A stretch of 64,000 nucleotides of DNA from Gemmatimonadales bacterium (lineage in GTDB: Bacteria; Gemmatimonadota; Gemmatimonadetes; Gemmatimonadales; GWC2-71-9), in the NCBI GenBank assembly GCA_035491895.1, contig DATJJY010000084.1:7192-71191 (forward strand). Reading direction: 5' to 3'. Each line of letters begins with the position of its first letter. Positions within the stretch are counted from its first letter, which is position 1. The notes beneath the pieces were generated by a model. The model did not search any database, was not told the origin of the DNA, and worked only from the letters and a program-made list of their open reading frames with translations. Below are positions 4,772-36,000 of the stretch, piece after piece. The position numbers and the translations under genes are program-made.

Positions 4772-5287
4772 TCAATCCGTATCGGGAGCGTGCACGACCC
4801 CGATATACGGAAGCGTCCGGTACTTGTTGTCGTAGTCGAGGCCGTAGCCGACCACCCAGCGATCCGGAATCTCGAATCCCACGTAATCGAGCCGCACTGC
4901 GGTATTCTCGTGGCCGCGCTTGCGCACCAGGACGCACGTCCGGAGCGACGCCGGCTCGCGGATCTCGAACATCTTCACGAGGTAGGAGAGGGTACACCCC
5001 GAGCTGACGATATCCTCGACGATGACCACGTGGCGGCTCTTGATGTCGACGCGCACGTCCATCGCCAGCCGGACCGACCCCATGGGCAGGCTGCCCCGGT
5101 CGTACTGGGACAGCGAAACGAAGTCCACCGCGCAGGGCACCGTGAGCCGCCGGGTCAGGTCCGCCAGAAACACATAGGAGCCGCGCAGCACCCCCACCAT
5201 CAACAGGTCTTCCACCCCTGCGTGATCGTGTGAAATGCGGCGGGCGAGCTCATCCACGCGATCGGCGATCGCGGATGCCGGAATCAT
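4772..5287 (-). CDS. hpt: Hypoxanthine(-guanine) phosphoribosyltransferase
   Basis: VVIVEDIVSSGCTLS PRPP-binding loop, LLMVGVLRGSYVFLADL, and C-terminal DYVGFEIPDRWVVGYGLDYDNKYRTLPYIGV. Likely start is MIPASAIADRV (5287); the track ORF extends to 5353. Confidence 0.9.
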   Translation of the reverse strand: MIPASAIADRVDELARRISHDHAGVEDLLMVGVLRGSYVFLADLTRRLTVPCAVDFVSLSQYDRGSLPMGSVRLAMDVRVDIKSRHVVIVEDIVSSGCTLSYLVKMFEIREPASLRTCVLVRKRGHENTAVRLDYVGFEIPDRWVVGYGLDYDNKYRTLPYIGVVHAPDTD

Positions 5288-5307
5288 GACGGGCGGCTGG
5301 AACCCGC

Positions 5308-6696
5308 TCACACCGGCACCTGCTCCCCGTCCTGTGCCGGACGGCTCGACCATCCCATCTTGGACGAGATCAGGTCGCCGAGCATTTTCGCGGCGGGCGG
5401 TTCACCGTGTACGAGGTAGGTCGTGCGCGGCGGGCGCTTGAATCCGCCGAGCCACCGCAGCATCTCGTTCTGATCGGCGTGCGCCGAGAGACCGTGAATC
5501 GTTTCCACCTTCGCCTGTACCGGCACATCCTCGCCGAACAACCGCAGCGTCTTCGCCCCGTCCTGCAGCGAGCGGCCACGGGTCCCGAGCGCCTGGAAGC
5601 CCACCAGCAGGACCGTGTTCTTTGGATCGGGCAGCCGGTGCGCGAGGTGATGCAGGATGCGGCCGCCGGTCGCCATTCCCGAAGCCGACACGATGATCGC
5701 CGGACCGCGCAGGTCATTCAGGCGCTTCGATTCTTCCACGGCCCTTACAAAGTGGCAATGCGCCGTATGGAGCGGAGTCTGACCGCGCCTGATCTCCGCC
5801 ATGAACTCCTCGTCGAGCTCCTCCGGGTGGTGCAGATAGATCTCCGTGACGTCGGTCGCGGAAGGGCTGTCGACGTACACCGGTAACTGAGGAACACGTC
5901 CCGCATCCTCGAGGTGATGCAGCATCCAGAGCAATTCCTGCGTCCGGTCCACCACGAACGCCGGGACGACGAGGACCCCGCCGCGATCCGCGGTCGCCTT
6001 CACGACGCTCGCCAGCTCGTCGTCGGTACCGGCGGGATGAATGCGGTCGCCGTACGTCGACTCGAGGAGCAGTACGTCCGCTTCCGCCACCGGCTCGGGA
6101 TCCGGCAGGATGGGCCGGTCGTAGCGTCCCAGATCGCCCGAGAAGACGATGCGCGGACCGGGACCCAGCTTCACGTCCACCGTCGCCGCGCCGAGGATGT
6201 GGCCCGCTCGGCGATACGTCACGGTGATGTCGCCCGCGACCGGGAACGCCTGTCCGTACGGCGGCGCCGGTCGCAGCTGCGTCAGCGCCTGTTCCGCGTC
6301 GGCCGCCGTGTAGAGCGGCAATGCCGGCGTGTGCTTCGAGTAGCCATGACGGTTGGCCCGCTCGGCGTCCTCTTCCTGGAGGTGGGCGGCATCGGGGAGC
6401 AGGACCCCCAGGAGGTCCACGGTCGCTTTGGTGCAGTGAATCGGTCCACGGTACCCGCGCTTCACGAGCAGCGGCAGCGCGCCGGTGTGATCGATGTGGG
6501 CGTGCGAGATGACGACCGCGTCCAACGCCGTCGGATCGAACTGGAAGTCGCGCCAGTTCCGCTCGCGCAGCTCCTTCAATCCCTGGAAGAGCCCGCAATC
6601 GAGCAGCACGCGGCGCCCGCTGGCGGTAACGAGGTGCATCGAGCCGGTGACGGTCCCGGCCGCACCGAGAAACTGAATGGAAGGGGCGTTCGCCAT
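5308..6696 (-). CDS. MBL-fold metallo-hydrolase with beta-CASP/RNA-metabolising domain
   Basis: Start MANAPSIQFLGAAGTVTGS (ATG 6696). ISHAHIDHTGALP (HxHxDH) motif, and a later ...HGLSAHADQNEMLRW beta-CASP motif C-like region. Confidence 0.85.
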   Translation of the reverse strand: MANAPSIQFLGAAGTVTGSMHLVTASGRRVLLDCGLFQGLKELRERNWRDFQFDPTALDAVVISHAHIDHTGALPLLVKRGYRGPIHCTKATVDLLGVLLPDAAHLQEEDAERANRHGYSKHTPALPLYTAADAEQALTQLRPAPPYGQAFPVAGDITVTYRRAGHILGAATVDVKLGPGPRIVFSGDLGRYDRPILPDPEPVAEADVLLLESTYGDRIHPAGTDDELASVVKATADRGGVLVVPAFVVDRTQELLWMLHHLEDAGRVPQLPVYVDSPSATDVTEIYLHHPEELDEEFMAEIRRGQTPLHTAHCHFVRAVEESKRLNDLRGPAIIVSASGMATGGRILHHLAHRLPDPKNTVLLVGFQALGTRGRSLQDGAKTLRLFGEDVPVQAKVETIHGLSAHADQNEMLRWLGGFKRPPRTTYLVHGEPPAAKMLGDLISSKMGWSSRPAQDGEQVPV

Positions 6697-6728: not shown

Positions 6729-7508
6729 CTAACTCGCGCGACCTGCTTCGATCACCCCCAGCACTCGCAACAGTCCGTCCAGGAACGTGAGCGGATGCGG
6801 CGGACACCCTGGTACCCAGAGATCGACCGGGATCTCGCCGGGAACGCCGTTCGAGACTTCCGGGCTGCCGCGAAACGGCCCCCCACTCACGGCGCAAGCG
6901 CCCACAGCCAGCACGATCTTCGGCGGCGGAACGGCGTCGTAAGTCTTCTGCAGCGCCAAACGCATGTTGACGTTGACGGCGCCGGTGATCACGATTCCAT
7001 CGGCGTGGCGAGGCGAAGCGACGAACTGCACGCCGAAACGGGCCAGGTCGAACACCACATTACCGAGGGCTACGAGCTCGGCCTCGCACCCGCCGCAGCT
7101 CCCCGCCACGACCGACCGGAGCCGCAGCGATCGCCCAAACAGCTTGCGACTGCGCTCGTCGAGCGCCCGCGCCAGCTCCACCTCGCCGCCTGGCGTCACC
7201 AGGGCGTCGCGTCGGTCGACAGCCATCCGATAATCCCGGGAGTACCCGATGGCGCCCGCCGGACACGCTGCGGCCTCCTCAGGACTGAAGAGACACGACC
7301 CGAGGTCCAGCGACGTCCGAGCGTTCGGGCCTTCTACCAGGAATGCCGAGGGGGCGTGGGCGCGGCACTCGCTGCAGTCATCCGGGCAACGCGCGGGGTC
7401 GCGCACCGCGCGGCCACGGAACCGCTCCGGGAGCTCGGGGAGAGGTCCCCGTGGAAAGGGCAGGGTGCGCATCCCCTGCCGCAGCCGGTTGCGGATCAGG
7501 TCGAGCAC
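6729..7508 (-). CDS. Ehr/Hyc small subunit: NuoB/HycG-like [4Fe-4S] domain fused to a degenerate HycF/NuoI-like ferredoxin N-terminus
   Basis: C-terminal half has GSCGGCEAE ... GACAVSGGPF ... VPGCPPHP (NuoB/HycG cluster motifs). N-terminal half has ..RNRLRQGMRTLPFPRGP..FRGRAVRDPARCPDDCSECRAHAP...CLFSPEEAAACPAGAI (HycF-like with depleted Cys). Start is probably GTG 7508; ATG 7472 is the alternative. Confidence 0.8.
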   Translation of the reverse strand: MLDLIRNRLRQGMRTLPFPRGPLPELPERFRGRAVRDPARCPDDCSECRAHAPSAFLVEGPNARTSLDLGSCLFSPEEAAACPAGAIGYSRDYRMAVDRRDALVTPGGEVELARALDERSRKLFGRSLRLRSVVAGSCGGCEAELVALGNVVFDLARFGVQFVASPRHADGIVITGAVNVNMRLALQKTYDAVPPPKIVLAVGACAVSGGPFRGSPEVSNGVPGEIPVDLWVPGCPPHPLTFLDGLLRVLGVIEAGRAS

Positions 7509-7524: not shown

Positions 7525-9036
7525 TCACAGGTCGTGCCCGGCGTAGGAGAGATTGAAGCTCTTGTTGCACAGCGGGAAGTCGGAGATCTCGTTCCCGGGC
7601 ATCGCAAGCGCGAGTGCGGCCCAATTGTGGAACGACGGGTCCGTGACCTTGTGCCGGCGGATGCTTCCCGTGTCGTCCGTGATGACCACGTGCACGATCT
7701 CCCCGCGCCACCCCTCGACCATCGCCACGACCAGCTCGTCGGGCCGCAGCGGTCCGCACGACACGCGGGCTTCGCCCCGAGGCAGCGCGCCGAGCTGCTC
7801 GATGAGGAAGGCGAGTGAGCGCTGAATTTCCAGCCGCCGCACCAGTGCCCGCGCCAGCACGTCGCCTGCCCAGGCCGTGGCCACCGGAATGTGGGCGAAA
7901 CGAAAGATCCCGTAGGGATGATCCTGGCGCACGTCCCGCGACATTTCGCACGCGCGTGCCACCGGACCGACGAGGCCGGCGTCGCCGCAGGCGGCCTTGG
8001 GCACAATGCCCACGCCTTCGAAGCGGGCCTGTACCGACGCGCTCTGGAACATCAAATCGAGGACCGGCTCAACTTCATCCCTGAGTCCCTCCAGTCGGCC
8101 GTGCATGTACGCCGCCATCTCCGGCGGGATGTCGAATCCGGCTCCTCCCGGCCGCACCAATCCACGACCGTACCGGTTGCCGCTCAGCGTCATCAGGAGA
8201 TTCAGGCACTCACCGCGCAGCCGTCCGAGGTACGCTGCGGCCGGCGCATAGGCCACATCGCCGGCCATGGCGCCGAGATCGCCGATATGGTTGGCCAACC
8301 GCTCGAGCTCGAGGGCGATGCCGCGGATCGTCTGCGCGCGCGGCGTCTTACGGGTGCGTGCGAGAGCCTCCAAGGCCCCGCAATACGCTTCAGCGTGCCC
8401 GATTACGGTATCCCCCGCGATCGACTCGGCCAGCAGCACGCCACGCACGGAGTCGAGCGTCTCCAGCAGCCGCTCCACGCCGCGGTGTTGGTACCCCAGC
8501 ATGATCTCCAGAAACAACACTGTTTCGCCGTGCGCCTGGAAACGAAAGTGTCCCGGCTCGATGATTCCGGCGTGCACGGGACCCACCGCCACCTCGTGGA
8601 CCTCATCGCCCTCGATCCGGAAGAACGGATGTGCCTCCCGATCTATCGCGCCGCCCCGGCGGGCTGGTGACACGTGATCCGGCGGGTGGCGCCGCAACGG
8701 CTTGAGCCAGGGGTGGCCCTCGGGCACCACGCCGCATTGCTCCGCGATTTCGCGCTCGAAGCGGTCTGCCTGGGCGCACTGCAGCGTGAGTGCCGGGTAG
8801 CGGAGATCCACGACCGTGGTCGACACCATCAGGTCGCCGCGGACATCATCGGCCAGGACAGCGACGAGCCTGGTCTGATCGTCTCTTTCAGGCATGCCAA
8901 ACAGCGACACGAGCCGCCACCCATCTGCCACCGCTTGCACCAGCGACTCGCGGAAACTGTCGAGCGATTCGCGCGGAACCGACTTCCAGGGAACGGCCCG
9001 GCGATTACGCAGCCCGAGCTCCCCGAAGTCTCTCAT
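7525..9036 (-). CDS. Ehr large subunit: NuoC-NuoD/HycE-like fusion lacking all four [NiFe] cysteine ligands
   Basis: ATG 9036 overlaps the upstream stop (ATGA). N-terminal NuoC-like domain, then HEVAVGPVHAGIIEPGHFRF, LGYQHRGVERLLE, ERLANHIGD. The position of RxCGxCxxxH reads ESIAGDTVIGH, and the position of DPCxxCxxR reads FNLSYAGHDL at the C-terminus. Confidence 0.85.
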   Translation of the reverse strand: MRDFGELGLRNRRAVPWKSVPRESLDSFRESLVQAVADGWRLVSLFGMPERDDQTRLVAVLADDVRGDLMVSTTVVDLRYPALTLQCAQADRFEREIAEQCGVVPEGHPWLKPLRRHPPDHVSPARRGGAIDREAHPFFRIEGDEVHEVAVGPVHAGIIEPGHFRFQAHGETVLFLEIMLGYQHRGVERLLETLDSVRGVLLAESIAGDTVIGHAEAYCGALEALARTRKTPRAQTIRGIALELERLANHIGDLGAMAGDVAYAPAAAYLGRLRGECLNLLMTLSGNRYGRGLVRPGGAGFDIPPEMAAYMHGRLEGLRDEVEPVLDLMFQSASVQARFEGVGIVPKAACGDAGLVGPVARACEMSRDVRQDHPYGIFRFAHIPVATAWAGDVLARALVRRLEIQRSLAFLIEQLGALPRGEARVSCGPLRPDELVVAMVEGWRGEIVHVVITDDTGSIRRHKVTDPSFHNWAALALAMPGNEISDFPLCNKSFNLSYAGHDL

Positions 9037-10466
9037 GGCGCCGATCCTCCGAGCGCCGTGGCGGCCCGCGCCAGAAGCTGCTGCAGCGGCCCGGGAATCG
9101 CGATCCCCAGAGCAAGCGCGGCGACGACGAGCGCCGCGGGACCCGCGACGAGCCATGCGCTCTCCCGGGCGCGCGGTCCGGAGGAGGCCACCGGTCCATA
9201 CAGCATCCCCAACATCATCGCCCCGACCCCGATGAAGATCACCGCGAGCAGGGCGAGGACCGCGCCCGCGATCCAGGGATGGCCGCCGGCCCAGGCCGCA
9301 CGCACGATCGTGAACTCGCTCAGGAACATCCCGAACGGCGGTGACCCCGTCACCGCGAACAGTCCCAGGAGGAGCAGGATTCCGGACACGGGGACCGCGC
9401 GCAGTACGCCTCCGCCGGATGATGGAAACGCAGTGGCGGCAGGGCCGACAACCAGCACGGCGTTCCCGACCGCGAGGAAGAGGAGTCCTTTTACCACCGC
9501 GTTGTTGACCAGGTGCAGCACGCTGCCGTAGACCCCGACGCCCCCCAATCCCAGCCCGAGGACGAGCAAGCCCACGTGCTCGACGCTCGAGTACGCGAGC
9601 AGGCGCTTCACGTCGGTTTGCCCGACGACGAACGCCGCCGCCACCGTGAGCGAGAGCAGTCCGAAGATCACGAGCGGCGGCTGCACGAATTGACCCAGGC
9701 CGGCGGCAACCGCGACCTCGGTTACCCGAGCGATCCCCAGGAACGCACAGCTGGTGAGGCCCCCGGCCATCAGGCCGCCGACCAACGCCGGCGCCTCGCC
9801 GTACGTGTCCGGCTTCCAGGTGTGCATCGGCGCGAGCCCCAGTTTGGTGCCGTACCCCACCAGCAGGAAGACGAACGCCGCCTTGAGCCAGACCGGATGC
9901 AGCAATGCCGCATGCGCGACGAGATCCTCCAACACAAGTGGCCGTACTCCCGGGCTGAGCTCTCCCTGGGCGGTGGAGAGAAAGAAGGTCCCGAGCAACG
10001 CCAGTGCGATGCCGACCGACGAGAGGACGAGATACTTCCACACTGCCTCGAGGGACCGCCGGTCGCGCCGCTGGAAGATGAGGGGCGCCAACGCCAGGGT
10101 CGTGCCTTCCATCCCCACCCACAGGAGTGCCAGATGATGGCTCACGGCAACCAGTGATGCGGTGGCGAGAAATGCGAGGAGCCAGCTCGCAAACCCGCGC
10201 CCGGTCCGTTCGCACCGCAGGTATCCCACCGCGTACGTCGCCACGACGAAGAACAGCAGGCTGACGACCGAAAGGACGACGAGCCCGAGCGGGTCGAGCG
10301 CGAGCCACCCATCGAGCACGGCAGCGGGTGGTGACCACCACGCCGTCGCGACGAGTATCAGATGAATGGCCGCCACCCATACCAGCCAACCGCCGTGCCG
10401 GGTGCCCCGGGCGAAGGCTCCCGCGGCGCCGAGCGCGGGGACGAGGAACAGCGCGAGCAGGAGCAT
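9033..10466 (-). CDS. Antiporter-like membrane subunit (HyfF / NuoN / Mrp-type)
   Basis: Start MLLLALFLVPALG (ATG 10466, 1-nt overlap with the upstream TGA). LLWVGMEGTTLALAPLI, WKYLVLSSVGIALALLG and LAPMHTWKPDTYGEAPALVGGLMAGGL are typical of the proton-conducting NuoL/M/N family. Confidence 0.85.
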   Translation of the reverse strand: MLLLALFLVPALGAAGAFARGTRHGGWLVWVAAIHLILVATAWWSPPAAVLDGWLALDPLGLVVLSVVSLLFFVVATYAVGYLRCERTGRGFASWLLAFLATASLVAVSHHLALLWVGMEGTTLALAPLIFQRRDRRSLEAVWKYLVLSSVGIALALLGTFFLSTAQGELSPGVRPLVLEDLVAHAALLHPVWLKAAFVFLLVGYGTKLGLAPMHTWKPDTYGEAPALVGGLMAGGLTSCAFLGIARVTEVAVAAGLGQFVQPPLVIFGLLSLTVAAAFVVGQTDVKRLLAYSSVEHVGLLVLGLGLGGVGVYGSVLHLVNNAVVKGLLFLAVGNAVLVVGPAATAFPSSGGGVLRAVPVSGILLLLGLFAVTGSPPFGMFLSEFTIVRAAWAGGHPWIAGAVLALLAVIFIGVGAMMLGMLYGPVASSGPRARESAWLVAGPAALVVAALALGIAIPGPLQQLLARAATALGGSAP

Positions 10467-11104
10467 CAGTCTCTCAGCTCCGTGAGCCGGGCCGAGTCGA
10501 GCGAATCGAACTCCCGGTTGATGTGGAACACGACGATCCCCATGATGAACACACCCACGAACACGTCGAGCAGGACGCCGACCTCGACGAGAAAGGGAAC
10601 GCGGTCCAGGCTCGTCAACCCGAACACATAGATCCCGTTCTCCAGCATGAGGTAGCCCACCACCTGGATCAACGCTTTCGCCCGCGTGGCCAGGACCTGG
10701 AGCCCCATGATGACGCACGCGAGCGAGGTGGTGACCAGCAACACCGGATGCTCACCCGGCACCGGGAGCCGCACCGCCACCGCGCCGGCCACGGCGACGG
10801 CGAGAATTCCCAGCACGAGGGACGCGACATAACCGACCCGTGGCTCAACTTCCCGGCGGACCGCGGCTTCCCGAATCGCCCAGATGAGGAACCAGGGCAG
10901 CACGATCGCCTTCACGAGGATCGTTCCCGCCGCGAGGCCCAGTGTATGGACCGACCACTGCGGGCGCAGCACGAGCGGCAGCAGGCCGAGCAATCCACCC
11001 TGCACCGCCACGGCCCGGATGCACGTCGTGAGCCGCGTGGTGCCGAGAATGAGAAAGCCGAACAACAGGACCAGCAGCAGGAGTAGGTCTGCCAGACGTT
11101 CCAT
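10466..11104 (-). CDS. HyfE-like small membrane subunit (NuoK-related)
   Basis: 212 aa, about 6-7 TM helices. The C-terminal ..GYLMLENGIYVFGL..VPFLVEVGVLLDVFVGVFIMGIVV pattern resembles hydrogenase-4 component E. Confidence 0.8.
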   Translation of the reverse strand: MERLADLLLLLVLLFGFLILGTTRLTTCIRAVAVQGGLLGLLPLVLRPQWSVHTLGLAAGTILVKAIVLPWFLIWAIREAAVRREVEPRVGYVASLVLGILAVAVAGAVAVRLPVPGEHPVLLVTTSLACVIMGLQVLATRAKALIQVVGYLMLENGIYVFGLTSLDRVPFLVEVGVLLDVFVGVFIMGIVVFHINREFDSLDSARLTELRD

Positions 11105-11106
11105 GA

Positions 11107-12093
11107 TTAGCTGAGGAGCTGGAGGATGGCACCGAGCGACGCCAGCACCGATGCGGCAACCAGGAACTGCGGGACTCGGCTCAAGCGGAACCGCGCCATG
11201 CTGGATTCGACCACGCCCACGGCGACGGCCACCGTCAAAAGACCCGCCACGAGCAATCCCAATGCCGCGGGACCGGGGAGACGGCCACGGGACGCCAGAA
11301 CACCGACCAGTAGCGCGGCGAAGAGGGCCATTCTGAGCGCGGCGCCGTAGAGGAGCAGCGCCAGATCCGGGCCACTGTGATCGAGCACGGTAACCTCGTG
11401 AATCATGGTCAGCTCGAGGTGCGTGGCGGGATCGTCCACCGGCATGCGGGACGCTTCCGTCAGCAGCACGAAGAACAGGCTCGCCGCGGCCATCGCCAGC
11501 GCCGGCGCCGCCGCGCCCCAGGGAAGCGCTTGCGTTCCGCCGAGCATCCCTTCGAGCGAAAGCTGCCCGCTGGCGAGTGCCAGCACGACGAAGCTGAGAA
11601 ACAGCGCCGGCTCGACGAGCGATGCGAAGGTCGCGTCGCGGCTCGCGCCCATCCCTTCAAAGCTCGATCCGGTATCGAGCGCCGCGAGCACCAGGGTGAA
11701 GCGGCCCAAGGCCAGCAGCGCGGCGAACCCCACGAAATCGCCGGTGAAACCAAACAGTGCGTGGCGCCCGTCGAGCGGCAGTAACCCCAGAGCGAGCAAC
11801 GGAGTCACCAGTCCGGCCACAGGGGCCAGGCGGAATATCCAAGTCGTCGTCGTGCTGTACACGGCACCCTTGCGCACCAAGCGGAAGAGGTCCCAGTAGA
11901 GCTGCATCAGCGGCGCACCGCGCCGGCCAGTGAGCACCGCTTTCGTCTTGGCTGCGACCCCGGGAAGCACGGGCGCGAGCGCCAGCAGAACGAGGAAGCC
12001 GACGGCGGATGACGCGGTCAGGGGGACGCCCCCTGCGCCAGATAGAGGAGGAGCAGCAGCAGGATAGCGATGACGTACAGGAGGTACACCCAC
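11107..12093 (-). CDS. HycD/HyfC/NuoH-like membrane subunit
   Basis: ..AKTKAVLTGRRGAPLMQLYWDLFRLVRKG.. matches the HycD/NuoH N-terminal loop, and the protein has multiple TM helices. Start is uncertain. The first canonical in-frame start is GTG 12093 (75-nt overlap with the upstream gene). A CTG at 12021 would give a CTGA stop/start overlap and a HycD-like length. Confidence 0.8.
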   Translation of the reverse strand: MGVPPVRHRYPAAAPPLSGAGGVPLTASSAVGFLVLLALAPVLPGVAAKTKAVLTGRRGAPLMQLYWDLFRLVRKGAVYSTTTTWIFRLAPVAGLVTPLLALGLLPLDGRHALFGFTGDFVGFAALLALGRFTLVLAALDTGSSFEGMGASRDATFASLVEPALFLSFVVLALASGQLSLEGMLGGTQALPWGAAAPALAMAAASLFFVLLTEASRMPVDDPATHLELTMIHEVTVLDHSGPDLALLLYGAALRMALFAALLVGVLASRGRLPGPAALGLLVAGLLTVAVAVGVVESSMARFRLSRVPQFLVAASVLASLGAILQLLS

Positions 12094-13985
12094 AACCGGC
12101 CGTGCTGGAGGGGACGGAGCCGCGCCAACACCCCACGCACGGCGCTCCAAGCGGGGAGGATCGCTCCGTCCAGGACGAGCTCGCGGGCTTGACTGTGAAA
12201 CGCCCTTCCCCCATGGGCGTGCGTTTCGTGGACGCCAGCCAAGCGGCCATACGCCGCGAGGAGCGGAGCCGCGAACGACGATGCCGTGTACTGCATCCGC
12301 TCGTTCTGGAGGGCGTAGCCGCACCCCCAGGTCTCCGCCCGCGTGAGCGACCGGCGCCGGCGTACGGCTGCCCACGCCACGGCACCGAGAGCAAGGAGCA
12401 CGACGAGCACGAGCGACCAGAGCCCGAGGCGGACGATCCCCGCGAAGACCTCGCTCCCGCTCGCCGGGAACGGGATTCGCGCGATCGACGCGCCTACGAC
12501 GAGGGCCGGCCCAACCGCGAGACCCGGTGCCAGCCCGATGAAAGCGCACGCCCCCGCCAGACCGAACATCGGACCCAGCATGCCGCCTGCGACCTCGTGC
12601 CCATGTAGCGCCGCGTCACTTCGAGGCACCCCCAGGAACACGACGCCGCATACCTTCGCGAAACATGCCAGGGCGAGGCCACCAATGATCGCGAGGCCGA
12701 CTACGCCGAGGAGAACCAACCGGATGGACCCTCCAGCCGTGCCGCCACGCAGCAGGCCGAGATAGATCACCCATTCGCTCACGAAGCCGTTGAGCGGCGG
12801 CAATCCCACAATGGCGACGGAACCGATTAGGAACGACACCCAGGTGAAGGGCATGCGCCGTCCCAGGCCGCCGAGGCGATCCATGATTCGCGTCCCCGTC
12901 GCGTGAACCGTCGCGCCGGCGCCCAGGAACAGGAGGCTTTTGAAGAGTGCATGATTCATCGTGTGGAGCACCGCGCCGGCGAACCCGAGCACCGCAACGA
13001 GGGGAACTCCGTAGGCCGCGCCCAAGGCCCCCGTTCCCAACCCGATGAGAATGATCCCGATATTTTCGACGCTATGATAGGCGAGGAGGCGCTTCAGGTC
13101 GTGCTGCGCCAGGGCCCAAAGCACGCCGAGAACACCCGACAGCACTCCGCTCACCAGCACCAGCCAGCCCCACCACGCAGGGGGCGCACCGAGCAGGCTC
13201 ACCACCCGGATCAGACCGTAGATCCCCATCTTGATGACCACTCCGGACATCAACGCGGAGACGTGCGTTGGGGCCGACGCGTGGGCGTCGGGAAGCCAGA
13301 AGTGGAGCGGGACGAGACCCGCCTTGAGGCCGAATCCGAAGAGCGCAAGACACAGCACGAGCGCACCTCGGGCGGGCAGGCTGCCAGCCCGACTCGCCAA
13401 AGCGTCGAAGGTGAGTCCACCTCCGGCGCCCGCCCAGGAGGCGAACAGCGCGATCAGCGCGAGGGTGCCAACGTGAGTCGCCACCAGGTACACCCACCCC
13501 GCGCGTCGCACTTCGGCCCGCTCGTTGTCGAACGTCACCAGGAAGTAGGCGAGTACCGCCATCGCCTCCCAGGCGACGAGAAACGGCACCACGGCTCGCG
13601 CCAATACGACCAGCGCCAGGGCAGCCAGCTCGACCGCGAAGAGGGCACGCGCGGTCGCAACGCCGCGCCGGCTTCCGTCGCCGCCGAGTGCGCGCAAGCC
13701 GTACAACGCGCTCGCCAGGCCCGGGCCGAGGACGACGAGGAGAAACGCCGCCGAGAGGCGATCGAGACCAAACACCCAGGGGCCGCTCGGCGCCGGGATG
13801 GGTATCTGGATGTCCGCCGCCGACCCACCCGCCAGCACGCTCACTGCCGGTGCCGCCGCCACCACGCACCCGACGGCGACCAACAGCCCATACGCGCGAT
13901 CCGCGAGCACGGGCCGGCTGCGTAGCACGGCGGCGCACCCCGCGGCGGCTACAATCGTCGCGAGCCCCCAGAAGCACAGGTTCAC
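12018..13985 (-). CDS. HyfB / NuoL-like antiporter subunit
   Basis: 655 aa. AWEAMAVLAYFLV, HFWLPDAHASAPTHVSALMSGVVIKMGIYGLIRV, LKRLLAYHSVENIGIILIG. GTG start 13985 overlaps the upstream stop (GTGA). Confidence 0.85.
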   Translation of the reverse strand: MNLCFWGLATIVAAAGCAAVLRSRPVLADRAYGLLVAVGCVVAAAPAVSVLAGGSAADIQIPIPAPSGPWVFGLDRLSAAFLLVVLGPGLASALYGLRALGGDGSRRGVATARALFAVELAALALVVLARAVVPFLVAWEAMAVLAYFLVTFDNERAEVRRAGWVYLVATHVGTLALIALFASWAGAGGGLTFDALASRAGSLPARGALVLCLALFGFGLKAGLVPLHFWLPDAHASAPTHVSALMSGVVIKMGIYGLIRVVSLLGAPPAWWGWLVLVSGVLSGVLGVLWALAQHDLKRLLAYHSVENIGIILIGLGTGALGAAYGVPLVAVLGFAGAVLHTMNHALFKSLLFLGAGATVHATGTRIMDRLGGLGRRMPFTWVSFLIGSVAIVGLPPLNGFVSEWVIYLGLLRGGTAGGSIRLVLLGVVGLAIIGGLALACFAKVCGVVFLGVPRSDAALHGHEVAGGMLGPMFGLAGACAFIGLAPGLAVGPALVVGASIARIPFPASGSEVFAGIVRLGLWSLVLVVLLALGAVAWAAVRRRRSLTRAETWGCGYALQNERMQYTASSFAAPLLAAYGRLAGVHETHAHGGRAFHSQARELVLDGAILPAWSAVRGVLARLRPLQHGRLWVYLLYVIAILLLLLLYLAQGASP

Positions 13986-14680
13986 CGCGACGCCACCGGG
14001 TGAGTTCCGCTCGTCGCCTGCTCTAGCTCACGCACGCGGGCGAGCAAAGCATCGGCGCTGGCCCGCCCCTCCAACAGTCCCCTGAGCGTCTTGTCCCGCA
14101 GCACAAAGCCCAGCTGCGCCAGTATCCGGAGGTGGGCTGGGACGTTCGGGCTGATGACGGTGAAGAGTGCGTGCACGGGCTTGCCGTCAACCGCGTCGAA
14201 CCCCACAGGGTGGTGCAACAAGCACAGGGTCACGAACGGGGCCGCGACGTGCAGCAGAATCGGGTTGCGGACATGCGGGATGGCGATTCCGTCGCCGATC
14301 CCCGTCGAGCCCATCGCCTCGCGCGCCTCGAGCACCGTGGCGAGAAAGTCGCGGTCGGCGTCGGCGGGGAGCGGCAGGCGCTTCACGATTTGGTGCAGCA
14401 CCTCTGCTCTTCCTTCTCCCCCGACGTCGTGATGGATCCCCCCGGTAACCAGTAGCTCCGACAGCAAGGCCACGTCCTCGGGCCGACGCCGCGCCTGATC
14501 CAGCAAGCGACGGGACACGGCGATGCCCTGTTCCGTAGCCCACTCCCACAGCTCGATGGCGTTCAGATGGAGGCGTTCGTTGACAGTGTGGGCCGGCAGT
14601 CCGCGCTGGCTGATCCAGCGGCGCACGGTCGACTCGTTGACTCCGAGATACGAGGCCGCCTGGTGGACGGTCAGCTGCAT
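13982..14680 (-). CDS. HTH (excisionase/MerR-type) DNA-binding domain fused to a PTS EIIA(Ntr/Fru)-type domain
   Basis: N-terminus LTVHQAASYLGVNESTVRRWISQRGLPAH (HTH_17-like). C-terminal domain carries STGIGDGIAIPHVRNP (EIIA_2 phospho-His loop) and ..VHALFTVISPNVPAHLRILAQL. Confidence 0.8.
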   Translation of the reverse strand: MQLTVHQAASYLGVNESTVRRWISQRGLPAHTVNERLHLNAIELWEWATEQGIAVSRRLLDQARRRPEDVALLSELLVTGGIHHDVGGEGRAEVLHQIVKRLPLPADADRDFLATVLEAREAMGSTGIGDGIAIPHVRNPILLHVAAPFVTLCLLHHPVGFDAVDGKPVHALFTVISPNVPAHLRILAQLGFVLRDKTLRGLLEGRASADALLARVRELEQATSGTHPVASR

Positions 14681-14751
14681 GCGAGGGCGAGGCGGGGGCG
14701 TGGTGCGGACACCGAGCGCGAAACTAACGGGAAATGACGCCGCCCGTCAAT

Positions 14752-16389
14752 TCACGGACTAGGATCGATACGGAACCGGTAGCGGGTGAGTCGAACGCCT
14801 CCGACACTGACATCACCCGTGATCGTACCGCCCGCTCGCGCGACCGCCGCGTAGAGCTCCTGCATCATCGTGGGATACGAGTTCGCGACCAGCGCCCAAG
14901 CCGTCGGATGCGCAACCGCCGCGAGGCGCGCCGCTTCACGGGCCGCCCAGCCGGAATCACTGACGACGGGGACGCCGAAACCGCGGCCCTCGCGCCACTG
15001 GATTCCGGATGCGAGCCCGAGTACCTCGACCCTGCCGCCGCGCGTCGTCCGGAGGCTGTCGCCTTCCTCCAGCCTAACTGGACGGCCGCGCGGAGGCGTG
15101 TTGTGGAATGCCGCGGCTCCCGGCGTCCCCGCGTATTGCTCGATCCAATCGAGATACGCCGTATCGGCGCGCGCCCAATCGGTCGTGTAGAAAGCCCACG
15201 CCGGGATGCTTCCGCTCGCCAGGTAGATGGGCTCGTCCCCTCGCGCGAGGCGCTGCAGCGAGTCCACCGCCTCCCGCGTGGAAGCTGGACGATATGGATG
15301 GGCGACGTTCACTCCGATGAGCGCGACAATCGCCACGACGCCGAGCGCCCAGCCGAGGCGCGCTCGTTGCAGCGTGGGGGCGGCGAATACCGCCGCGAGG
15401 CCCAGCAGGAAGGTGGGGACCGTGAACATCAGGAGACGGGCGGCGAGCGGGTACCGCTGCAGGCCAGAGGCGACGAGGAGGAGCAAGAGCGGTACGCCGA
15501 GCAGTGCGACGCTCGCGCGCGGCAAGCGGCGCAGCCATACCCAGAGCCCCACACCCACGATATCAGCGAAGCCGATGATGACGGCGGCAGGCGCCGAGCG
15601 GCCGACGATCGACATGAATAGCCCGCGCGCCAGATTCCACCACCCCTCCGCGTGGCTGGGTGCGAAGAACGCGGGGCCCCAGAACTGCTGCATGTACCAA
15701 CTGGCCGCGACCGGTCGGTACAGGAGAGCGTAGAGCGGAACCCACACTGCACCCCACAGAGCCAGGCAAAGGATCAGTCGCCGGGCCGTCCGCCCCCTGA
15801 GGGGGCGTACGCCCACGACGATCGCCGCCGCCGCCCCCGCCAGCAGAAAGGGAGCGGGAAGCGAACCGAGAATCGCGACGAGACTCACGACCCCGAAGCG
15901 GACCCAGACGCCCTTCGAATCCGGGCGATCGAGCAGGTCGAGCGTACACCACATCAGGAGGAGGGTGAACAGTGCGTCGGTGATGTACGGCTTGGCGGTG
16001 ACGCTGTATTGAATCAACGCCGGGGCGAAGGCCGCCAGGGCGGACGCGAGGATCGCCGCGGGCTCCGTCAGGAGCCGGCGCCCCACTCCCCAAACCAGAA
16101 ACGGGATCAGCGAACCCGCCGCGAGGGGGATGAAGCGAAGCGTGTACTCGTTCATCCCCGCGACTGTCGTGCACAGCTTCACGGCCCAGAGAAAGAGAAC
16201 CGGACCCGTCTGGAGCGAGGCCAGTGGACGGAGCAGCTCCATGAAGGAGCGTAGACCCAAGTCCAGGCTCAACGTCGTCTCATCAATCGTCAGCGACGGA
16301 CGGGAGAGGTAGAACCCGAGGCGAAGGGCCGTGCCGAGAATCAGGATTACCGTGAGCAGGAACTGTCGACGCCGGAGCGACAACGTCAC
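14752..16389 (-). CDS. ArnT/PMT_2-like (GT-C fold) membrane glycosyltransferase, paralogue 2
   Basis: GTG 16389 overlaps the upstream stop (GTGA). N-terminus LRLGFYLSRPSLTIDETTLSLDL..PVLFLWAVKLCTTVAGMNEYTLRFIPL, about 10-12 TM helices, plus a C-terminal soluble domain. Clearly paralogous to 16386..17990. Confidence 0.7.
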   Translation of the reverse strand: MTLSLRRRQFLLTVILILGTALRLGFYLSRPSLTIDETTLSLDLGLRSFMELLRPLASLQTGPVLFLWAVKLCTTVAGMNEYTLRFIPLAAGSLIPFLVWGVGRRLLTEPAAILASALAAFAPALIQYSVTAKPYITDALFTLLLMWCTLDLLDRPDSKGVWVRFGVVSLVAILGSLPAPFLLAGAAAAIVVGVRPLRGRTARRLILCLALWGAVWVPLYALLYRPVAASWYMQQFWGPAFFAPSHAEGWWNLARGLFMSIVGRSAPAAVIIGFADIVGVGLWVWLRRLPRASVALLGVPLLLLLVASGLQRYPLAARLLMFTVPTFLLGLAAVFAAPTLQRARLGWALGVVAIVALIGVNVAHPYRPASTREAVDSLQRLARGDEPIYLASGSIPAWAFYTTDWARADTAYLDWIEQYAGTPGAAAFHNTPPRGRPVRLEEGDSLRTTRGGRVEVLGLASGIQWREGRGFGVPVVSDSGWAAREAARLAAVAHPTAWALVANSYPTMMQELYAAVARAGGTITGDVSVGGVRLTRYRFRIDPSP

Positions 16390-17990
16390 GGCGGCCTCGC
16401 GAATCCGACCCGCGAACGCTCGACTCCTCCCACCACCGAGTCGACCTCGATCCGCCCGCCGACACGGTCCAGGGCCGCGAACAGCGAATCCCGCGTGCCT
16501 GCGTACGCGGTGGCGATCAACAGCCAGACGGTGGGCCCGGATTGCTTGATGCGGGCCGCTTCCGTGGCGGCCCACCCCGCGTCAGGGGAGCGGCCGCTCA
16601 ACCCGACCACTTCGCGCCATTGGATCCCCGGGGCGAGGCCGAGGATTTCCACTCTCCCGAGCCGCCGTACATCGGAACCCGCCGCATCGGCCACGGTCAC
16701 TTCTCGGCTCCGCGGCGCCAGGTTGTGGAAGCCCGGAGCATCGGGGACTCCGCCCCAGCGGCGGATTCTCCCGAGGTAGCCGGTGTCGGGGGATGACCAA
16801 TCGGTGGTGTAGAACGCCCAGGCCGGAATTGCGCCGCTCGAGACGTAGACCGGATCGCCAGCTGCGGCCGCGGCGATGGTGCGGATCGCTGGACGCAGCG
16901 CCGGCGTGCGGTAGGGATGCAGAACGTTCACGAGAGCGAGCCCGGCCACGACGAGCGCGCTGATTGTTATGCCGATGAGCCGGCGCCTGGACGAGAGCGC
17001 GACAACGCTCGCCGCAGCGCAGAGCGCGAAGGTCGGCGCCACGCCCAGGAGAACCCTGGCCGAGAGTGGATAACGGTGTACTGGCGACGCGACGAGTACC
17101 GCCAGTATGGGGATCCCGAGGAGACCGGCCGGCGCGCGGCCGGCGCGGCGCGCAAGGATAGCGAAACCAGCCACGAACAGAAGTATGACGAGGGGGATCA
17201 AGACGGCTGGGATCGGACGGGCCACGAGCGACTGTATCACCGCACGTCCAGCCAGCTGCCATCCGGCGACGTCCAACGGGGATAGGAAGGCCCCACTCCA
17301 GAACCGCTGCATGTAGCTGCTCGCGGCGACTGGTCGATACAGGGTGAGATAGAGGTAGAGAAAGGCCACACCCCAGACCGCAATGAGGGCTGCAAGCCGC
17401 GCGGCCGAACCGGCGGTCCTGGGCTTGAGTCCCAGGAGCAGGGCGACAGCGACACCGCCCAACAGAAACGGCGCAGCGATCGACCCCAGGACGGCTGCAA
17501 GTCCAGCTACTCCCAGCCATGCCTGGGCCCGGCGTTCTCCCGGACGGTCCAACAGGCGCAACGTGCTTTGCGCCAAGACGAGCGCGATCACCGCGTCCGT
17601 CATATACGGTTTGGCGATCACGCTGTACTGGACGAGGGTCGGCGCAACGCTGGCGATGCCCGTGGCGACCAGTGCCCCGGCCGGGTCGAGCACCCGTTGG
17701 CCGACGCGCCAGACGAGATAGGGGACGACGAGACCGCCGACCAGCGGCACGCTGCGCAGCGCATACTCGTTCATGCCGCCGATCAGGGTGCACAGCTTGA
17801 CTCCCCAGAGGAACAGCGGCGCAGCCGTCTGCTCGTAGGCGAGGGGATGCAGCAATCCGGCCAACGACCGCGCCCCGATTTCGAGGCTCGTCATCGTTTC
17901 GTCGATCGAGAGGGAGGGGCGGGAGAGGTAGAGGCCGAGGCGCAGGGCGGCGCCGAGGACGAGGAGGAGCCAGAAGACCCGCCGCCGCAT
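16386..17990 (-). CDS. ArnT/PMT_2-like (GT-C fold) membrane glycosyltransferase, paralogue 1
   Basis: MRRRVFWLLLVLGAALRLGLYLSRPSLSIDETMTSLEI..PLFLWGVKLCTLIGGMNEYALRSVPL. Same architecture as the downstream paralogue. Confidence 0.7.
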   Translation of the reverse strand: MRRRVFWLLLVLGAALRLGLYLSRPSLSIDETMTSLEIGARSLAGLLHPLAYEQTAAPLFLWGVKLCTLIGGMNEYALRSVPLVGGLVVPYLVWRVGQRVLDPAGALVATGIASVAPTLVQYSVIAKPYMTDAVIALVLAQSTLRLLDRPGERRAQAWLGVAGLAAVLGSIAAPFLLGGVAVALLLGLKPRTAGSAARLAALIAVWGVAFLYLYLTLYRPVAASSYMQRFWSGAFLSPLDVAGWQLAGRAVIQSLVARPIPAVLIPLVILLFVAGFAILARRAGRAPAGLLGIPILAVLVASPVHRYPLSARVLLGVAPTFALCAAASVVALSSRRRLIGITISALVVAGLALVNVLHPYRTPALRPAIRTIAAAAAGDPVYVSSGAIPAWAFYTTDWSSPDTGYLGRIRRWGGVPDAPGFHNLAPRSREVTVADAAGSDVRRLGRVEILGLAPGIQWREVVGLSGRSPDAGWAATEAARIKQSGPTVWLLIATAYAGTRDSLFAALDRVGGRIEVDSVVGGVERSRVGFARPP

Positions 17991-17998: not shown

Positions 17999-20173
17999 CT
18001 ACGCTTTTTCGAGCAGCGCTTTGAACCGCGGATCGTCGTGCAGTGCGACCAGATCCGAATCGTTTTCGATCCAGCCCCGCAACCCGAACCCCAGCTGAAT
18101 CGCTTTCTCGAGGCAGGCGAACGCCTCGTCATGCTCACCCTGCACGGCGTAAAAGCAGCCGACGTTGTAGAGCAGCCCGGAATCCTCGGGGTCGATTGCC
18201 AGCGCCCGTTTCGCCCATTCGAGCCCGCGCTCGCGCTGGCCGATGTGCGCCAGCTCGATCGCCCCGAGACAGAGCGCGCGGGGATCGTCCGGGTTCAGCT
18301 CGACGTAGCGCTCCACCAGCTCCCACGTGTTGCGGTGGGCCGCTTCGGCGTCCGCCGTACGACCCAGCCCCTCGTACGTTTGAGCGAGGAACGACGCCGC
18401 CTGGTAGTCGTCGGGGCGGAGCCGGCTCGCCGCCTCGAACGACCGCGACGCTTCGGCAACCTTGCCCTGCCCGTACTTGACCCGGGCGTAGTAGTAGTGG
18501 GCTTCGAACAGCTTGGGGTTCAGGCGAATCGCCGTTTCGAACTCCTGCTCGGCCTCCGCCTGTCGTCCCCCGAACGCCAGCGCCATACCGCGCGACGTAT
18601 GGGCCTCGGCCAGCTGGGGATCGAGCTCGAGCGCCTTGCGGCTCGCACTGTCGGCCTGCTCGAGGTGGGCACCGCTGGCATCCCAGTACGTGTAGATGAA
18701 TGAGCAGCAATCCGCGATGCCGGCGTAGGCGAGCGCGTAGTTCGGGTCGATCTCCTTGGCGCGCTCGAACATCCGGCGCGCGTACTCCACGCTCTTGCGA
18801 CGCCACTGATGGAAGAACTGCCGGCCCCGCAAGTAGTACTCGTATGCCTGCACGTTCGCCGTGGGCGCCTTTTCGATGGCCCGCTTTTCGTCGTCGCTCA
18901 GCACCACACGCAGCGCCTTCACGATGTTGCCGGCGATTTCCTCCTGAATCGCGAACACGTCTTCCATGTCCCGGTCGTAGCGCTCCGACCAGAGGTGATA
19001 GCCGTCCGCCACGTTGATCAGCTGCGCCGTGATGCGCAGCCGGTTCCCCGCTTTCCGCACGCTGCCTTCGAGGACCGTGCCGACGCCAAGCTGCTCCCCC
19101 ACTCTCCGGATATCGAGGTTCTGTCCCTTGAACGCGAACGCCGACGAGCGCGACGCGACCCGCAGCGCCTGGATCTTCGTCAGGGCATTGAGGATTTCTT
19201 CGGCCATCCCCTCGCAGAAGTACTCCTGATCGCGCTGGGGGCTCATGTCGGCAAGGGGAAGAACGGCGATGGACTTGGCCGCGGCGTGCGCGGCGGTGGC
19301 GGGCATCGTGCCGGGAGGAGTCGACACCCCCGACGACTTCAGCGCCTGGGCGAACTGGTTGGCCGACGCGAAGCGATCACTGGGCGATTTCGACAGCGCC
19401 TTCGAGACCGCCGCGTCGAGCCAATCGGGCAGACCGCCGCGGCGATCCCGCAGAGGCGGGGGCGGGTCGGTGAACAACTTCGCGATGATCGCCTGCGGGG
19501 TCGGGCCGGCGAACGGAACGCTGCCTCCCAGCATCTCGTACAGCATCGCCCCCAGTGCGTAGATGTCGCTCCGGCCGTCCAGCTCCGGCTCCCCTGCGGC
19601 CTGCTCGGGGCTCATGTACGCCGGCGTGCCGATCGCCGCGCCGGTTTGTGTCAGGTTCTCCGCCGCTGCCGCACTGACCGCCTTCGCGATGCCGAAATCG
19701 GTCACCACCGCTTCGCCGTCGTGCAGCATCACGTTCTCGGGCTTGATGTCCCGGTGCACCACCTGGTGACGGTGCGCGTAATCGAGTGCGGCAGCCACGG
19801 AGCGGGCGATCTGCACCGCGTCGTCGACCGGGAGCTGCCGGGAGCGCTCCAGCCGTTGCCGCAGGCTCTCCCCCTCGACGAAGGGCATCACGTAAAACAA
19901 CAGGTCCTGCGCTTGTCCGGAGTCGTAGAGGGGGACGATGTGGGGATGCTGCAGGCCGGCGGCGATCTGGATCTCCCGCAGGAATCGCTCGGGGCCGAGG
20001 CTGACGGCCAGCTGCGGATGCAGCACCTTCAAAGCGACGGACCGGTGGTGGCGCAGGTCCTGGGCGAGAAACACGGTCGCCATGCCGCCACGGCCGACCT
20101 CGCGGTCGACCTGGTAGCGGTCGGCCACCGCGGTCCGGAGGCGATCGATCAACTCGGTCATGGGAACAGCCAA
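17999..20173 (-). CDS. Ser/Thr protein kinase with C-terminal TPR domain
   Basis: GRGGMATVFLAQD..VALKVL, HRDIKPENVML, DFGIAK, GTPAYMSPEQ Hanks motifs. A central TolB-N-like linker, then multiple TPR-like repeats (..AEAHTSRGMALAFGGRQAEAEQEFETAIRLNP..). Confidence 0.9.
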   Translation of the reverse strand: MAVPMTELIDRLRTAVADRYQVDREVGRGGMATVFLAQDLRHHRSVALKVLHPQLAVSLGPERFLREIQIAAGLQHPHIVPLYDSGQAQDLLFYVMPFVEGESLRQRLERSRQLPVDDAVQIARSVAAALDYAHRHQVVHRDIKPENVMLHDGEAVVTDFGIAKAVSAAAAENLTQTGAAIGTPAYMSPEQAAGEPELDGRSDIYALGAMLYEMLGGSVPFAGPTPQAIIAKLFTDPPPPLRDRRGGLPDWLDAAVSKALSKSPSDRFASANQFAQALKSSGVSTPPGTMPATAAHAAAKSIAVLPLADMSPQRDQEYFCEGMAEEILNALTKIQALRVASRSSAFAFKGQNLDIRRVGEQLGVGTVLEGSVRKAGNRLRITAQLINVADGYHLWSERYDRDMEDVFAIQEEIAGNIVKALRVVLSDDEKRAIEKAPTANVQAYEYYLRGRQFFHQWRRKSVEYARRMFERAKEIDPNYALAYAGIADCCSFIYTYWDASGAHLEQADSASRKALELDPQLAEAHTSRGMALAFGGRQAEAEQEFETAIRLNPKLFEAHYYYARVKYGQGKVAEASRSFEAASRLRPDDYQAASFLAQTYEGLGRTADAEAAHRNTWELVERYVELNPDDPRALCLGAIELAHIGQRERGLEWAKRALAIDPEDSGLLYNVGCFYAVQGEHDEAFACLEKAIQLGFGLRGWIENDSDLVALHDDPRFKALLEKA

Positions 20174-20195: not shown

Positions 20196-20316
20196 CGCGA
20201 TTGCGAACCCGAGCGCTACCCGTGCCTGAGCTTCCGTGCATGAGTCGCTACTTCGGGACGTGCGCAGTCACCAACTCGGAATGGCGCGATCGGGGAACGC
20301 CGGTGGTCCCGCTGAG

Positions 20317-20388
<72 letters not shown>

Positions 20389-32363: not shown

Positions 32364-32379
32364 GGATGCTCCTTGATAG

Positions 32380-32772
32380 TTAGGGCTGGTCCTCACCCAG
32401 AGCCCGGCGCTGCACCTGGTCCGCCGTAACGGCAGTGACGGCGGCGGTGTCGACCTCGCCGGTCCTGATCCGGATCACGCGCTCCAAGGGCTGCACGAAA
32501 ATCTTGCCGTCACCGACCTGACCGGTGCGTGCGGACGACAGGATCGCCTTGATGGTCGGCTCGACGAACGGCTCCGAGCACGCCATCTCGAGCCGCACCT
32601 TCTCGCGGAACTCGAGCACCACGGTGCGGCCGCGATAATGCTCCTGCAGCTCCCGCTCGCCTCCATGCCCGCTCACGCGGCTGATGGTGATGCCGGTGAT
32701 CCCGGCGCGGAACAGCGCGGCCTTGACCTGCGGCAGCCGCTCGGGGCGCACCACGGCGGTGATGAGTTTCAT
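32380..32772 (-). CDS. glnK: PII nitrogen-regulatory protein (GlnK-type, with C-terminal extension)
   Basis: MKLITAVVRPERLPQVKAALFRAGITGITISRVSGHGGE...TGQVGDGKIFVQPLERVIRIRTGE. 130 aa, against about 112 aa for canonical PII. Confidence 0.9.
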   Translation of the reverse strand: MKLITAVVRPERLPQVKAALFRAGITGITISRVSGHGGERELQEHYRGRTVVLEFREKVRLEMACSEPFVEPTIKAILSSARTGQVGDGKIFVQPLERVIRIRTGEVDTAAVTAVTADQVQRRALGEDQP

Positions 32773-32787
32773 GACATTCCTCCGAGG

Positions 32788-35993: not shown

Positions 35994-36000
35994 GGGCAAT

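Follow-up and report, generated by a model that had tools for sequence, protein, structure and literature searches.

A PtsN-like domain fused to an excisionase-type helix-turn-helix forms the conserved first gene of Ehr clusters and is a putative regulator of them

The window analyzed here is a 64 kb stretch of a Gemmatimonadales bacterium genome (contig DATJJY010000084.1), and all coordinates refer to it. Its (−) strand carries a gene cluster for an Ehr-type membrane complex, headed by a gene, ehrR, whose product combines a helix-turn-helix (HTH) with an EIIA domain of the phosphotransferase system (PTS). A first-pass annotation of this DNA, made from the sequence alone, had described ehrR as an HTH–PTS_EIIA_2 fusion with the loop GIGDGIAIPH and had placed its stop codon over the start of a HyfB-like gene. 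Residue numbers below are those of the 232-aa protein. The genes and features of the cluster are as follows.

13982..14680, (−) strand: ehrR, first gene of the cluster, ATG start, 232 aa, HTH_17 plus EIIA (Ntr-type)
14528..14674, (−) strand: excisionase/MerR-like winged HTH, residues 3-51 (PF12728, TIGR01764, AlphaFold2 (AF2) model)
14039..14437, (−) strand: PTS_EIIA_2 domain, PtsN-like, residues 82-214 (PF00359, PDB sequence matches, Foldseek)
14275..14273, (−) strand: codon CAT of His136, the predicted phospho-acceptor, at the end of the loop GIGDGIAIPH (residues 127-136)
13982..13985, (−) strand: GTGA stop/start overlap of ehrR and ehrA (TGA 13984..13982, GTG 13985..13983)
12018..13985, (−) strand: ehrA, HyfB/NuoL-like antiporter-type subunit, 655 aa (PF00361, Proton_antipo_M; NF005086 'hydrogenase 4 subunit B', 541 bits)
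11107..12021, (−) strand: ehrB, NuoH/HyfC-like subunit (PF00146), start uncertain, CTG 12021 or GTG 11970
10466..11104, (−) strand: ehrC, HyfE-like membrane subunit, 212 aa (NF008556 'hydrogenase 4 membrane subunit', 78.8 bits, under the cut-off of 136)
9033..10466, (−) strand: ehrD, HyfF/NuoN-like antiporter-type subunit (PF00361; NF005044, 298 bits), its ATG overlapping the ehrC stop by 1 nt
7525..9036, (−) strand: ehrL, fused NuoC/NuoD-like large subunit (PF00329 and PF00346), ATGA overlap with ehrD, without NiFe cysteines
6729..7508, (−) strand: ehrS, degenerate HyfH/NuoI-like N-terminal domain plus NuoB-like small subunit (PF01058; NF009053 over residues 9-112), start approximate, GTG 7508 or ATG 7472

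The overlap between ehrR and ehrA is as the first-pass annotation had it: GTG at 13985 is the sole available start of the 655-aa ehrA open reading frame (ORF), and independent gene calls on close relatives give the identical 4-nt overlap. The annotated fusion was likewise recovered, with both domains above cut-off. Over residues 3-51 EhrR matches Pfam HTH_17 (PF12728; 35 bits, cut-off 27), it matches the NCBIfam family 'excise' (TIGR01764; 35.6 bits, cut-off 28.8), and over residues 82-214, which include the loop at residues 127-136, it matches Pfam PTS_EIIA_2 (PF00359; 72.6 bits, cut-off 27). The AF2 model of EhrR is confident (predicted local distance difference test (pLDDT) 93.4, predicted template modeling score 0.82) and gives the HTH a winged-helix topology at pLDDT >90, with helices at residues 5-12, 16-25 and 41-51 and a beta hairpin at 31-40 (strands 31-33 and 36-40). 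When this model was searched with Foldseek, the top fold matches were the PtsN structures 3urr, 1a6j, 2a0j and 4gqx (target-normalized TM-score 0.72-0.81, probability 1.00), and a PDB sequence search returned the same PtsN entries, 3urr, 2a0j, 4gqx and 1a6j, at ~1e-14. The full HTH–EIIA architecture is in no solved structure. The family itself is large, with 251 clusters (50% identity) at E <= 1e-30; nearly all of the best 150 clusters are full-length proteins of ~225-240 aa, and HTH_17 is kept in all 120 homologues listed in one search and in 119 of the 120 listed in another.

PtsN (EIIA-Ntr) and EhrR have in common the fold, the nearest sequences and structures, the G-x-G-I-A-I-P-H loop and the auxiliary Arg and His. 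PtsN is regulatory and not a transport component, and the role of EhrR would be likewise. PtsN differs in being a stand-alone protein of ~150-160 aa, usually encoded in the rpoN cluster and acting by protein contacts, whereas EhrR has an N-terminal DNA-binding domain and sits in the ehr operon. We rejected the assignment of EhrR as a PtsN orthologue: the best NCBIfam EIIA model is that of PtsN (TIGR01419), but its 64.9 bits fall under the equivalog cut-off of 138.7, NF008145 also misses its cut-off (54.2 bits against 221), and a 232-aa protein with an N-terminal HTH_17 is not single-domain. A canonical MerR regulator was rejected as well, since short helices and then the EIIA domain come after the HTH, with neither a coiled coil nor an effector site; Pfam gave no MerR or MerR_1 match on EhrR. 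Nor did Pfam find a PRD or EIIB-like domain in EhrR, giving only HTH-type families and PTS_EIIA_2.

The genes downstream of ehrR encode a complex without the metal ligands of a NiFe hydrogenase. In the window, the L1 site of EhrL reads E-S-I-A-G-D-T-V-I-G-H, compared with E-R-x-C-G-x-C-x-x-x-H in NiFe hydrogenases. Nearly all of 48 family members likewise have Ala and Thr/Ser where the L1 cysteines would be; in 47 there is Cys at neither place, and one has it at the first. L2 is non-canonical, with a highly conserved ISDFPLCNKSFNLSY[CA]GHDL at the C-terminus in place of the hydrogenase D-P-C-x-x-C. The missing NiFe cysteines in the large subunit justify naming this cluster Ehr. In EhrS, all four NuoB-type cysteines are invariant (29/29 sequences). 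Its N-terminal HyfH-like ferredoxin domain carries two 4-Cys motifs in most members, and in the window three of these eight ferredoxin-type cysteines are replaced (A59, S82, E85), suggesting that one or both extra 4Fe-4S clusters have probably been lost in this lineage. The ehr genes of Geobacter sulfurreducens are ehrA-2 (GSU0734) and ehrA-1 to ehrS (GSU0739-0745) (PMC7894505 supplement), and the Ehr proteins of this species rise under formate (PMC7894505). The window cluster matches Geobacter Ehr in subunit set and order (EhrA, B, C, D, L, S), in the absence of NiFe ligands and in the retention of the NuoB-type 4Fe-4S cysteines; it differs in that the window EhrS is without three of the eight ferredoxin-type cysteines that most members keep. 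As a side observation on ehrB, the 98%-identical relative L162 starts this gene at a GTG that reads GTC in the window, which leaves either CTG 12021, whose CTGA overlaps the stop of ehrA, or a GTG located 11 codons farther into the gene.

We then asked how far the pairing of ehrR with ehr genes extends. A genome scan with the peptide GDGIAIPH, taken from a seven-sequence alignment of EhrR, yielded 80 loci (L numbers below designate individual loci) spanning Gemmatimonadota, Planctomycetota, Verrucomicrobiota, Lentisphaerota, Acidobacteriota, Desulfobacterota, Myxococcota, Spirochaetota, Omnitrophota, Eisenbacteria, Methylomirabilota and unclassified metagenome-assembled genomes. Among the 79 genome loci with the ehrR stop on the contig, ehrA lies directly after ehrR on the same strand in 77, across about a dozen phyla; in the remaining two the contig ends within 500 bp downstream of ehrR. 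Wherever the contig is long enough ehrB-C-D-L-S follow ehrA, and some loci contain a second ehrA. The ehrR/ehrA junction is tight: in these 79 loci an NTGA overlap is available in 33, a 1-nt overlap of the TAATG/TGATG type occurs in 5 and a gap of <=30 nt in 24, with stop/start overlap nearly universal in Gemmatimonadota and common elsewhere. The same layout and gene order are found in the cultured Geotalea daltonii FRC-32 (CP001390.1), and ehrR is also carried by the complete genomes OY969426.1 and OY759590.1. All-against-all clustering of the flanking ORFs gave no other conserved neighbor, whether formate dehydrogenase, NuoEF, a PTS gene or an electron-input module.

To remove ascertainment bias, we carried out a reverse survey in which metagenomes were scanned via EhrL and loci were counted only when the ehrA start and >=700 bp upstream of it were on the contig (n=25). 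ehrR was directly upstream of ehrA in 23 of these 25 loci. In only two EhrL-ascertained clusters is the place directly upstream of ehrA taken by something other than an HTH-EIIA gene: a PBP1C-type penicillin-binding protein gene in L103 (2402-4965), and two extra antiporter-like genes in L110 (2078-4983). The neighborhood check proposed with the first-pass annotation thus returned a linkage that is conserved from either end, via EhrR and via EhrL. Pairwise identities of EhrR and EhrL also correlate (r = 0.75 overall; r = 0.40 among non-Gemmatimonadota, a value reached in 11 of 2000 permutations), which fits joint inheritance of the regulator and the structural genes. In two loci, L057 (1590-12675) and L069 (3-8240), ehrR and one ehrA copy are divergent from the rest of the cluster, this remainder being ehrA-B-C-D-L-S in L057 and, in L069, ending within ehrD; the layout recalls the separation of ehrA-2 (GSU0734) from ehrA-1 to ehrS (GSU0739-0745) in G. 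sulfurreducens. Some variations accompany this pattern. Judged by its locus number, an mRNA-interferase gene, GSU0736, lies inside the G. sulfurreducens ehrA-2/ehrA-1 gap; a tandem pair of HTH-EIIA genes is found upstream of ehrA in Gemmatimonadota L004, L008, L012 and L020; and L003, L004 and L008 have a second ehrA-like gene of ~2 kb.

The EIIA domain of EhrR retains the residues of phosphotransfer. Counted over 130 EhrR homologues of 33-63% identity, the triad is kept at His136 (124/130), Arg120 (123/130) and His183 (129/130), so the His of the IPH loop, whose conservation had been singled out as a check, is indeed conserved. In PDB alignments, the EhrR loop REAMGSTGIGDGIAIPH pairs closely with the phospho-His loop of PtsN structures and AHLRIL pairs with their second-His region. 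His136 falls on the histidine of the conserved G-x-G-x-A-I-P-H loop in PtsN structures, the residue that is phosphorylated in PtsN, and Arg120 and His183 likewise fall on their PtsN counterparts. As to a phosphoryl donor, Pfam scans of ~50 window ORFs across the 64 kb gave no EI, HPr, EIIB or EIIC, and tblastn over 171 sequences (the window and related loci) with E. coli HPr/NPr queries gave no match; the first-pass annotation had already seen no other PTS component in the window. In the same 171 sequences, tblastn with PtsN matched only EIIA domains. General PTS proteins are normally encoded elsewhere in the genome, and we infer, from the conservation of the active-site residues, that His136 may be phosphorylated by an HPr/NPr-type donor encoded elsewhere.

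We next looked for a DNA sequence that the HTH might read, in the 57 upstream regions of ehrR from non-Gemmatimonadota loci. The sigma-70-like element TTGACA is present in 35 of the 57 (1.4 expected) and TGTCCA in 33 (~2 expected). TGTCY occurs at two fixed distances from TTGAC, +28 and +38; relative to the ATG, these sites are most often at −49 and −39. The first repeat begins on the final base of the −10 box and the second is one helical turn further along, over the predicted start, while an inverted GGACA is often found at +11, in the −35/−10 spacer. Tandem TGTCCA-type repeats 10-11 nt apart are found in 26 of the 57 loci, whereas random 200-nt windows drawn from these loci gave an expectation of 0.3 and at most 5 in any of 1000 sets; the repeats recur in 7 of 24 independently (EhrL-)ascertained loci. 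Lambda Xis and other winged helices of the excisionase type bind direct repeats arranged in tandem, head to tail. The HTH of EhrR belongs to the same winged-helix family (HTH_17/TIGR01764) as lambda Xis and TorI, which are excisionases or recombination directionality factors, and Xis-type binding to direct repeats about one helical turn apart matches the TGTCCA-N4-TGTCCA layout. EhrR differs from the excisionases in having no integrase or mobile element nearby, in the fusion of its HTH to a sensor and in its chromosomal, operon-specific conservation. A MerR-type promoter with a 19-20 bp spacer was considered and rejected, as ehrR promoters have a spacer of ~17 nt and their main repeats lie downstream of the −10.

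The presence of the operator tracks the sequence of the HTH. In operator-positive loci (n=33), K17, Y20, R38 and F39 are invariant (33/33) and Y31, Q36 and R41 nearly so. In Gemmatimonadota, which are without the operator, K17 gives way to A/S, Y20 to R, R38 to H/Y, F39 to L, Y31 to H, Q36 to R and R41 to A. The co-varying residues are located in the second helix (16-25) and in the beta hairpin wing of the AF2 model. This co-variation is the strongest available evidence that the HTH reads the TGTCCA operator, and it points to EhrR as the protein that would be bound there. The first-pass annotation had raised control through transcription as one possibility, and the tandem repeats together with the co-varying residues lend that proposal support at the level of sequence. 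A subclade at 38-42% identity shows a different arrangement: in L119 and L126 the canonical TGTCCA repeats are absent upstream of ehrR, and the region has repeated GTACGTCC / GTACATCC-like elements ~21 nt apart, a possible variant operator.

Upstream of the window's own ehrR, the following features were noted.

14681..14751, (−) strand: ehrR upstream region, 71 nt, with candidate promoter elements
14750..14745, (−) strand: −35-like TTGACG, with a 17-nt spacer to TTAGTT
14727..14722, (−) strand: weak −10-like TTAGTT, by sequence likeness
14711..14707, (−) strand: single TGTCC, placed where other phyla have the distal operator repeat
14752..17990 and 17999..20173, (−) strand: two PMT_2-family glycosyltransferase genes upstream of ehrR, the nearest only 71 nt from it

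Tandem TGTCY is found nowhere in the window. The block from TTAG to the ATG is kept in relatives at 83-98% protein identity (L162, L163, L168, L001) and not in a clade at 89%. A window palindrome, TGACG-N5-CGTCA, over the −35-like box was rejected as evidence of an operator because it is not kept in the 98%-identical L162 and L163. Looking for a lineage-specific operator, we found TTGAAC-N4/5-GTTCAA palindromes in some Gemmatimonadota loci. The PMT_2 neighbor is kept in the close relatives L001, L162 and L168, and a Ser/Thr kinase gene with TPR repeats precedes the two PMT_2 genes. Taken with the residue replacements above, the putative DNA-reading residues and the candidate operator are both changed in the Gemmatimonadales lineage.

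Together, these observations suggest that EhrR is, on balance, probably a dedicated and autoregulated one-component transcription factor of the Ehr operon, switched by the state of its PtsN-like domain. In this model ehrR would be transcribed as the first gene of the operon that it regulates, and the N-terminal excisionase-type winged helix would bind the operon's own promoter, the target in most phyla being two head-to-tail TGTCCA repeats 10 nt apart over the −10 and the transcription start. That placement over the core promoter predicts repression and autoregulation, so the sign of regulation would be negative. An HPr/NPr-type carrier would phosphorylate the EIIA domain (Arg120, His136, His183) and thereby switch DNA binding, such that Ehr synthesis would follow the state that the PTS reads, be it phosphoenolpyruvate (PEP)/pyruvate or glutamine/2-oxoglutarate. 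The close and frequently overlapping junction of ehrR with ehrA implies a single mRNA for the regulator and the first membrane subunit.

Parts of this arrangement have counterparts in known systems. The Firmicutes PRD regulators MtlR, LicR and ManR are DNA-binding proteins set by His phosphorylation of a C-terminal EIIA_2-like domain, the same logic as proposed for EhrR, in which PTS state is passed to transcription of one operon. They differ in their length of ~650-700 aa, Mga-type HTH, two PRDs and EIIB-like domain and in controlling sugar-PTS operons, whereas EhrR would manage with 232 aa and an excisionase-type HTH, without PRD or EIIB, and its target would be a respiratory-type membrane complex. 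Dedicated regulators within operons for Hyf/Hyc-like complexes also have precedent. The ArsR-type Rv0081 is the promoter-proximal gene of the Mycobacterium tuberculosis Rv0081-0088 operon for a Hyf/Hyc-like complex, and HyfR/FhlA are formate-sensing sigma-54 activators of group-4-hydrogenase-like operons of E. coli. Both resemble EhrR in this respect; they belong to unrelated families with unrelated signals (metal/redox for ArsR, and formate) and are without a PTS domain.

Several observations weigh against EhrR as a PTS-switched autoregulator. The canonical tandem operator is absent in the window, in other Gemmatimonadota and in Geobacteraceae (L023, L025 and G. daltonii), as well as in 17 of the 24 metagenome loci, and a factor other than EhrR could bind the candidate operator where it does occur. 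A consensus promoter/terminator scan of 14500..15000 gave no sigma-70 promoter and nothing at all, and with a PMT_2 gene on the same strand only 71 nt upstream, read-through into ehrR is possible. No PTS donor gene was found in the window or in 2.08 Mb of related loci, and His136 is absent from 6 of the 130 homologues. Finally, the start/stop overlaps would equally suit a stoichiometric partner of the Ehr complex.

Some of these points bear on the input to EhrR and others on its output. It is unlikely, though a possibility to be taken seriously, that EhrR is a transcription factor whose EIIA-fold sensor is independent of the PTS, the His/Arg/His residues serving ligand binding or structure. 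This would accord with the absence of a linked PTS gene in all of ~185 loci, with the score of EhrR under the PtsN equivalog cut-off and with the homologues that have lost His136, and the EIIA_2 fold has been reused without phosphotransfer in the cytoplasmic domains of SLC4 anion exchangers, which are among the EhrR fold matches. However, the full triad is kept at 95-99% across homologues as distant as 33-63% identity, the loop REAMGSTGIGDGIAIPH is a near-match to PtsN loops, and general PTS genes are normally unlinked anyway. On the output side, EhrR might be mainly a protein-contact regulator or peripheral partner, with the EIIA domain docking on an Ehr subunit, membrane or peripheral, according to its phosphorylation state and the HTH secondary or, in Gemmatimonadales, no longer a sequence-specific reader of DNA. 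Dephospho-PtsN docks on TrkA and KdpD, and the nearest domain to that of EhrR is PtsN, whose known outputs are protein contacts. The near-universal ehrR/ehrA overlap in Gemmatimonadota favors fixed co-expression with the first membrane subunit, ehrR is inherited together with the structural genes, and the window's lineage has lost the operator and changed the predicted DNA-reading residues; here the protein-contact alternative has more weight than elsewhere. Against it stand the retention of HTH_17 in 120/120 and 119/120 listed homologues, the conserved operator that co-varies with HTH residues, and the fact that first-gene autoregulators with overlapping junctions are common. We hold it to be rather improbable as a general account.

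The two outputs might also be combined. EhrR would then be bifunctional, a PTS-phosphorylated autorepressor as well as a docking partner of the Ehr complex, with DNA reading remodeled or lost in Gemmatimonadales and mainly the protein contact left; we offer this as a speculation with a small chance of being right. An accidental adjacency, in which the protein is an ordinary PtsN or a sugar-PTS IIA, has in its favor the database names 'PTS sugar transporter subunit IIA' and 'PTS system nitrogen regulatory IIA component', but it is refuted by the neighborhood surveys (77/79 and 23/25 loci, in about a dozen phyla) and is at odds with the HTH fusion, the lack of an EIIB or EIIC gene nearby and the score under the PtsN cut-off; we give it almost no credence.

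Elsewhere in the window, the (−) strand continues after the Ehr cluster with a beta-CASP/RMMBL metallo-beta-lactamase RNase gene (5308..6695), starting 33 nt after the ehrS stop, and then a phosphoribosyltransferase gene (4772..5353). The RNase adjacency is common to the relative L001 and was not detected in any other genome locus searched. About 17 kb from ehrR, a nitrogen-assimilation block at 31170..37880 (−) encodes an OmpL-like porin, P-II (GlnK), an ammonium transporter and two glutamine synthetases. A dense signaling region (38890..45267 and 48542..49603) encodes a 1030-aa hybrid histidine kinase of the CHASE3-PAS type, two response regulators with HD_5 (HD-GYP-type) domains and another three proteins with receiver domains. 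A Kup-type K+ transporter gene at 55012..57111 (+) is worth noting only for the control that PtsN exerts on K+ transport elsewhere among bacteria. The sole hit of Rfam and tRNA scans across the window was a tRNA-Cys at 20316..20388.

In the full-text and supplement literature we found no publication linking a PTS-IIA gene with Ehr, although earlier mention in the primary papers Coppi 2005 and Marreiros 2013 is possible. The architecture, as distinct from the Ehr link, is already in the G. daltonii depositors' annotation, 'helix-turn-helix transcriptional regulator, MerR family, PTSIIA domain-containing'. Ehr complexes, which are widespread and related to complex I and to group-4 hydrogenases, have no NiFe site and no known substrate or physiological role, and their function is regarded as unknown in published work (PMC6349859, PMC7894505, PMC13194489). 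EhrR, almost always present and the only conserved neighbor, is the best available handle on that role; it would indicate the cell state in which Ehr is produced. Its conserved first-gene position suggests that a carbon/nitrogen phosphorelay may control Ehr, and the PtsN-like sensor points to carbon, nitrogen or energy status and not to hydrogen or formate; the outputs of PtsN suggest, by analogy, a possible tie to ion homeostasis as well. EhrR would also represent a minimal 232-aa architecture for wiring a PTS-type domain to transcription, in phyla whose PTS has hardly been studied. The predicted operator, TGTCCA-N4-TGTCCA, is directly testable, and the presence of ehrR and ehr in the cultured Geotalea daltonii makes experiments feasible. 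If EhrR did prove to be bifunctional, Ehr would become the first example in the complex I family of a machine under direct gating by the carbon/nitrogen phosphorelay.

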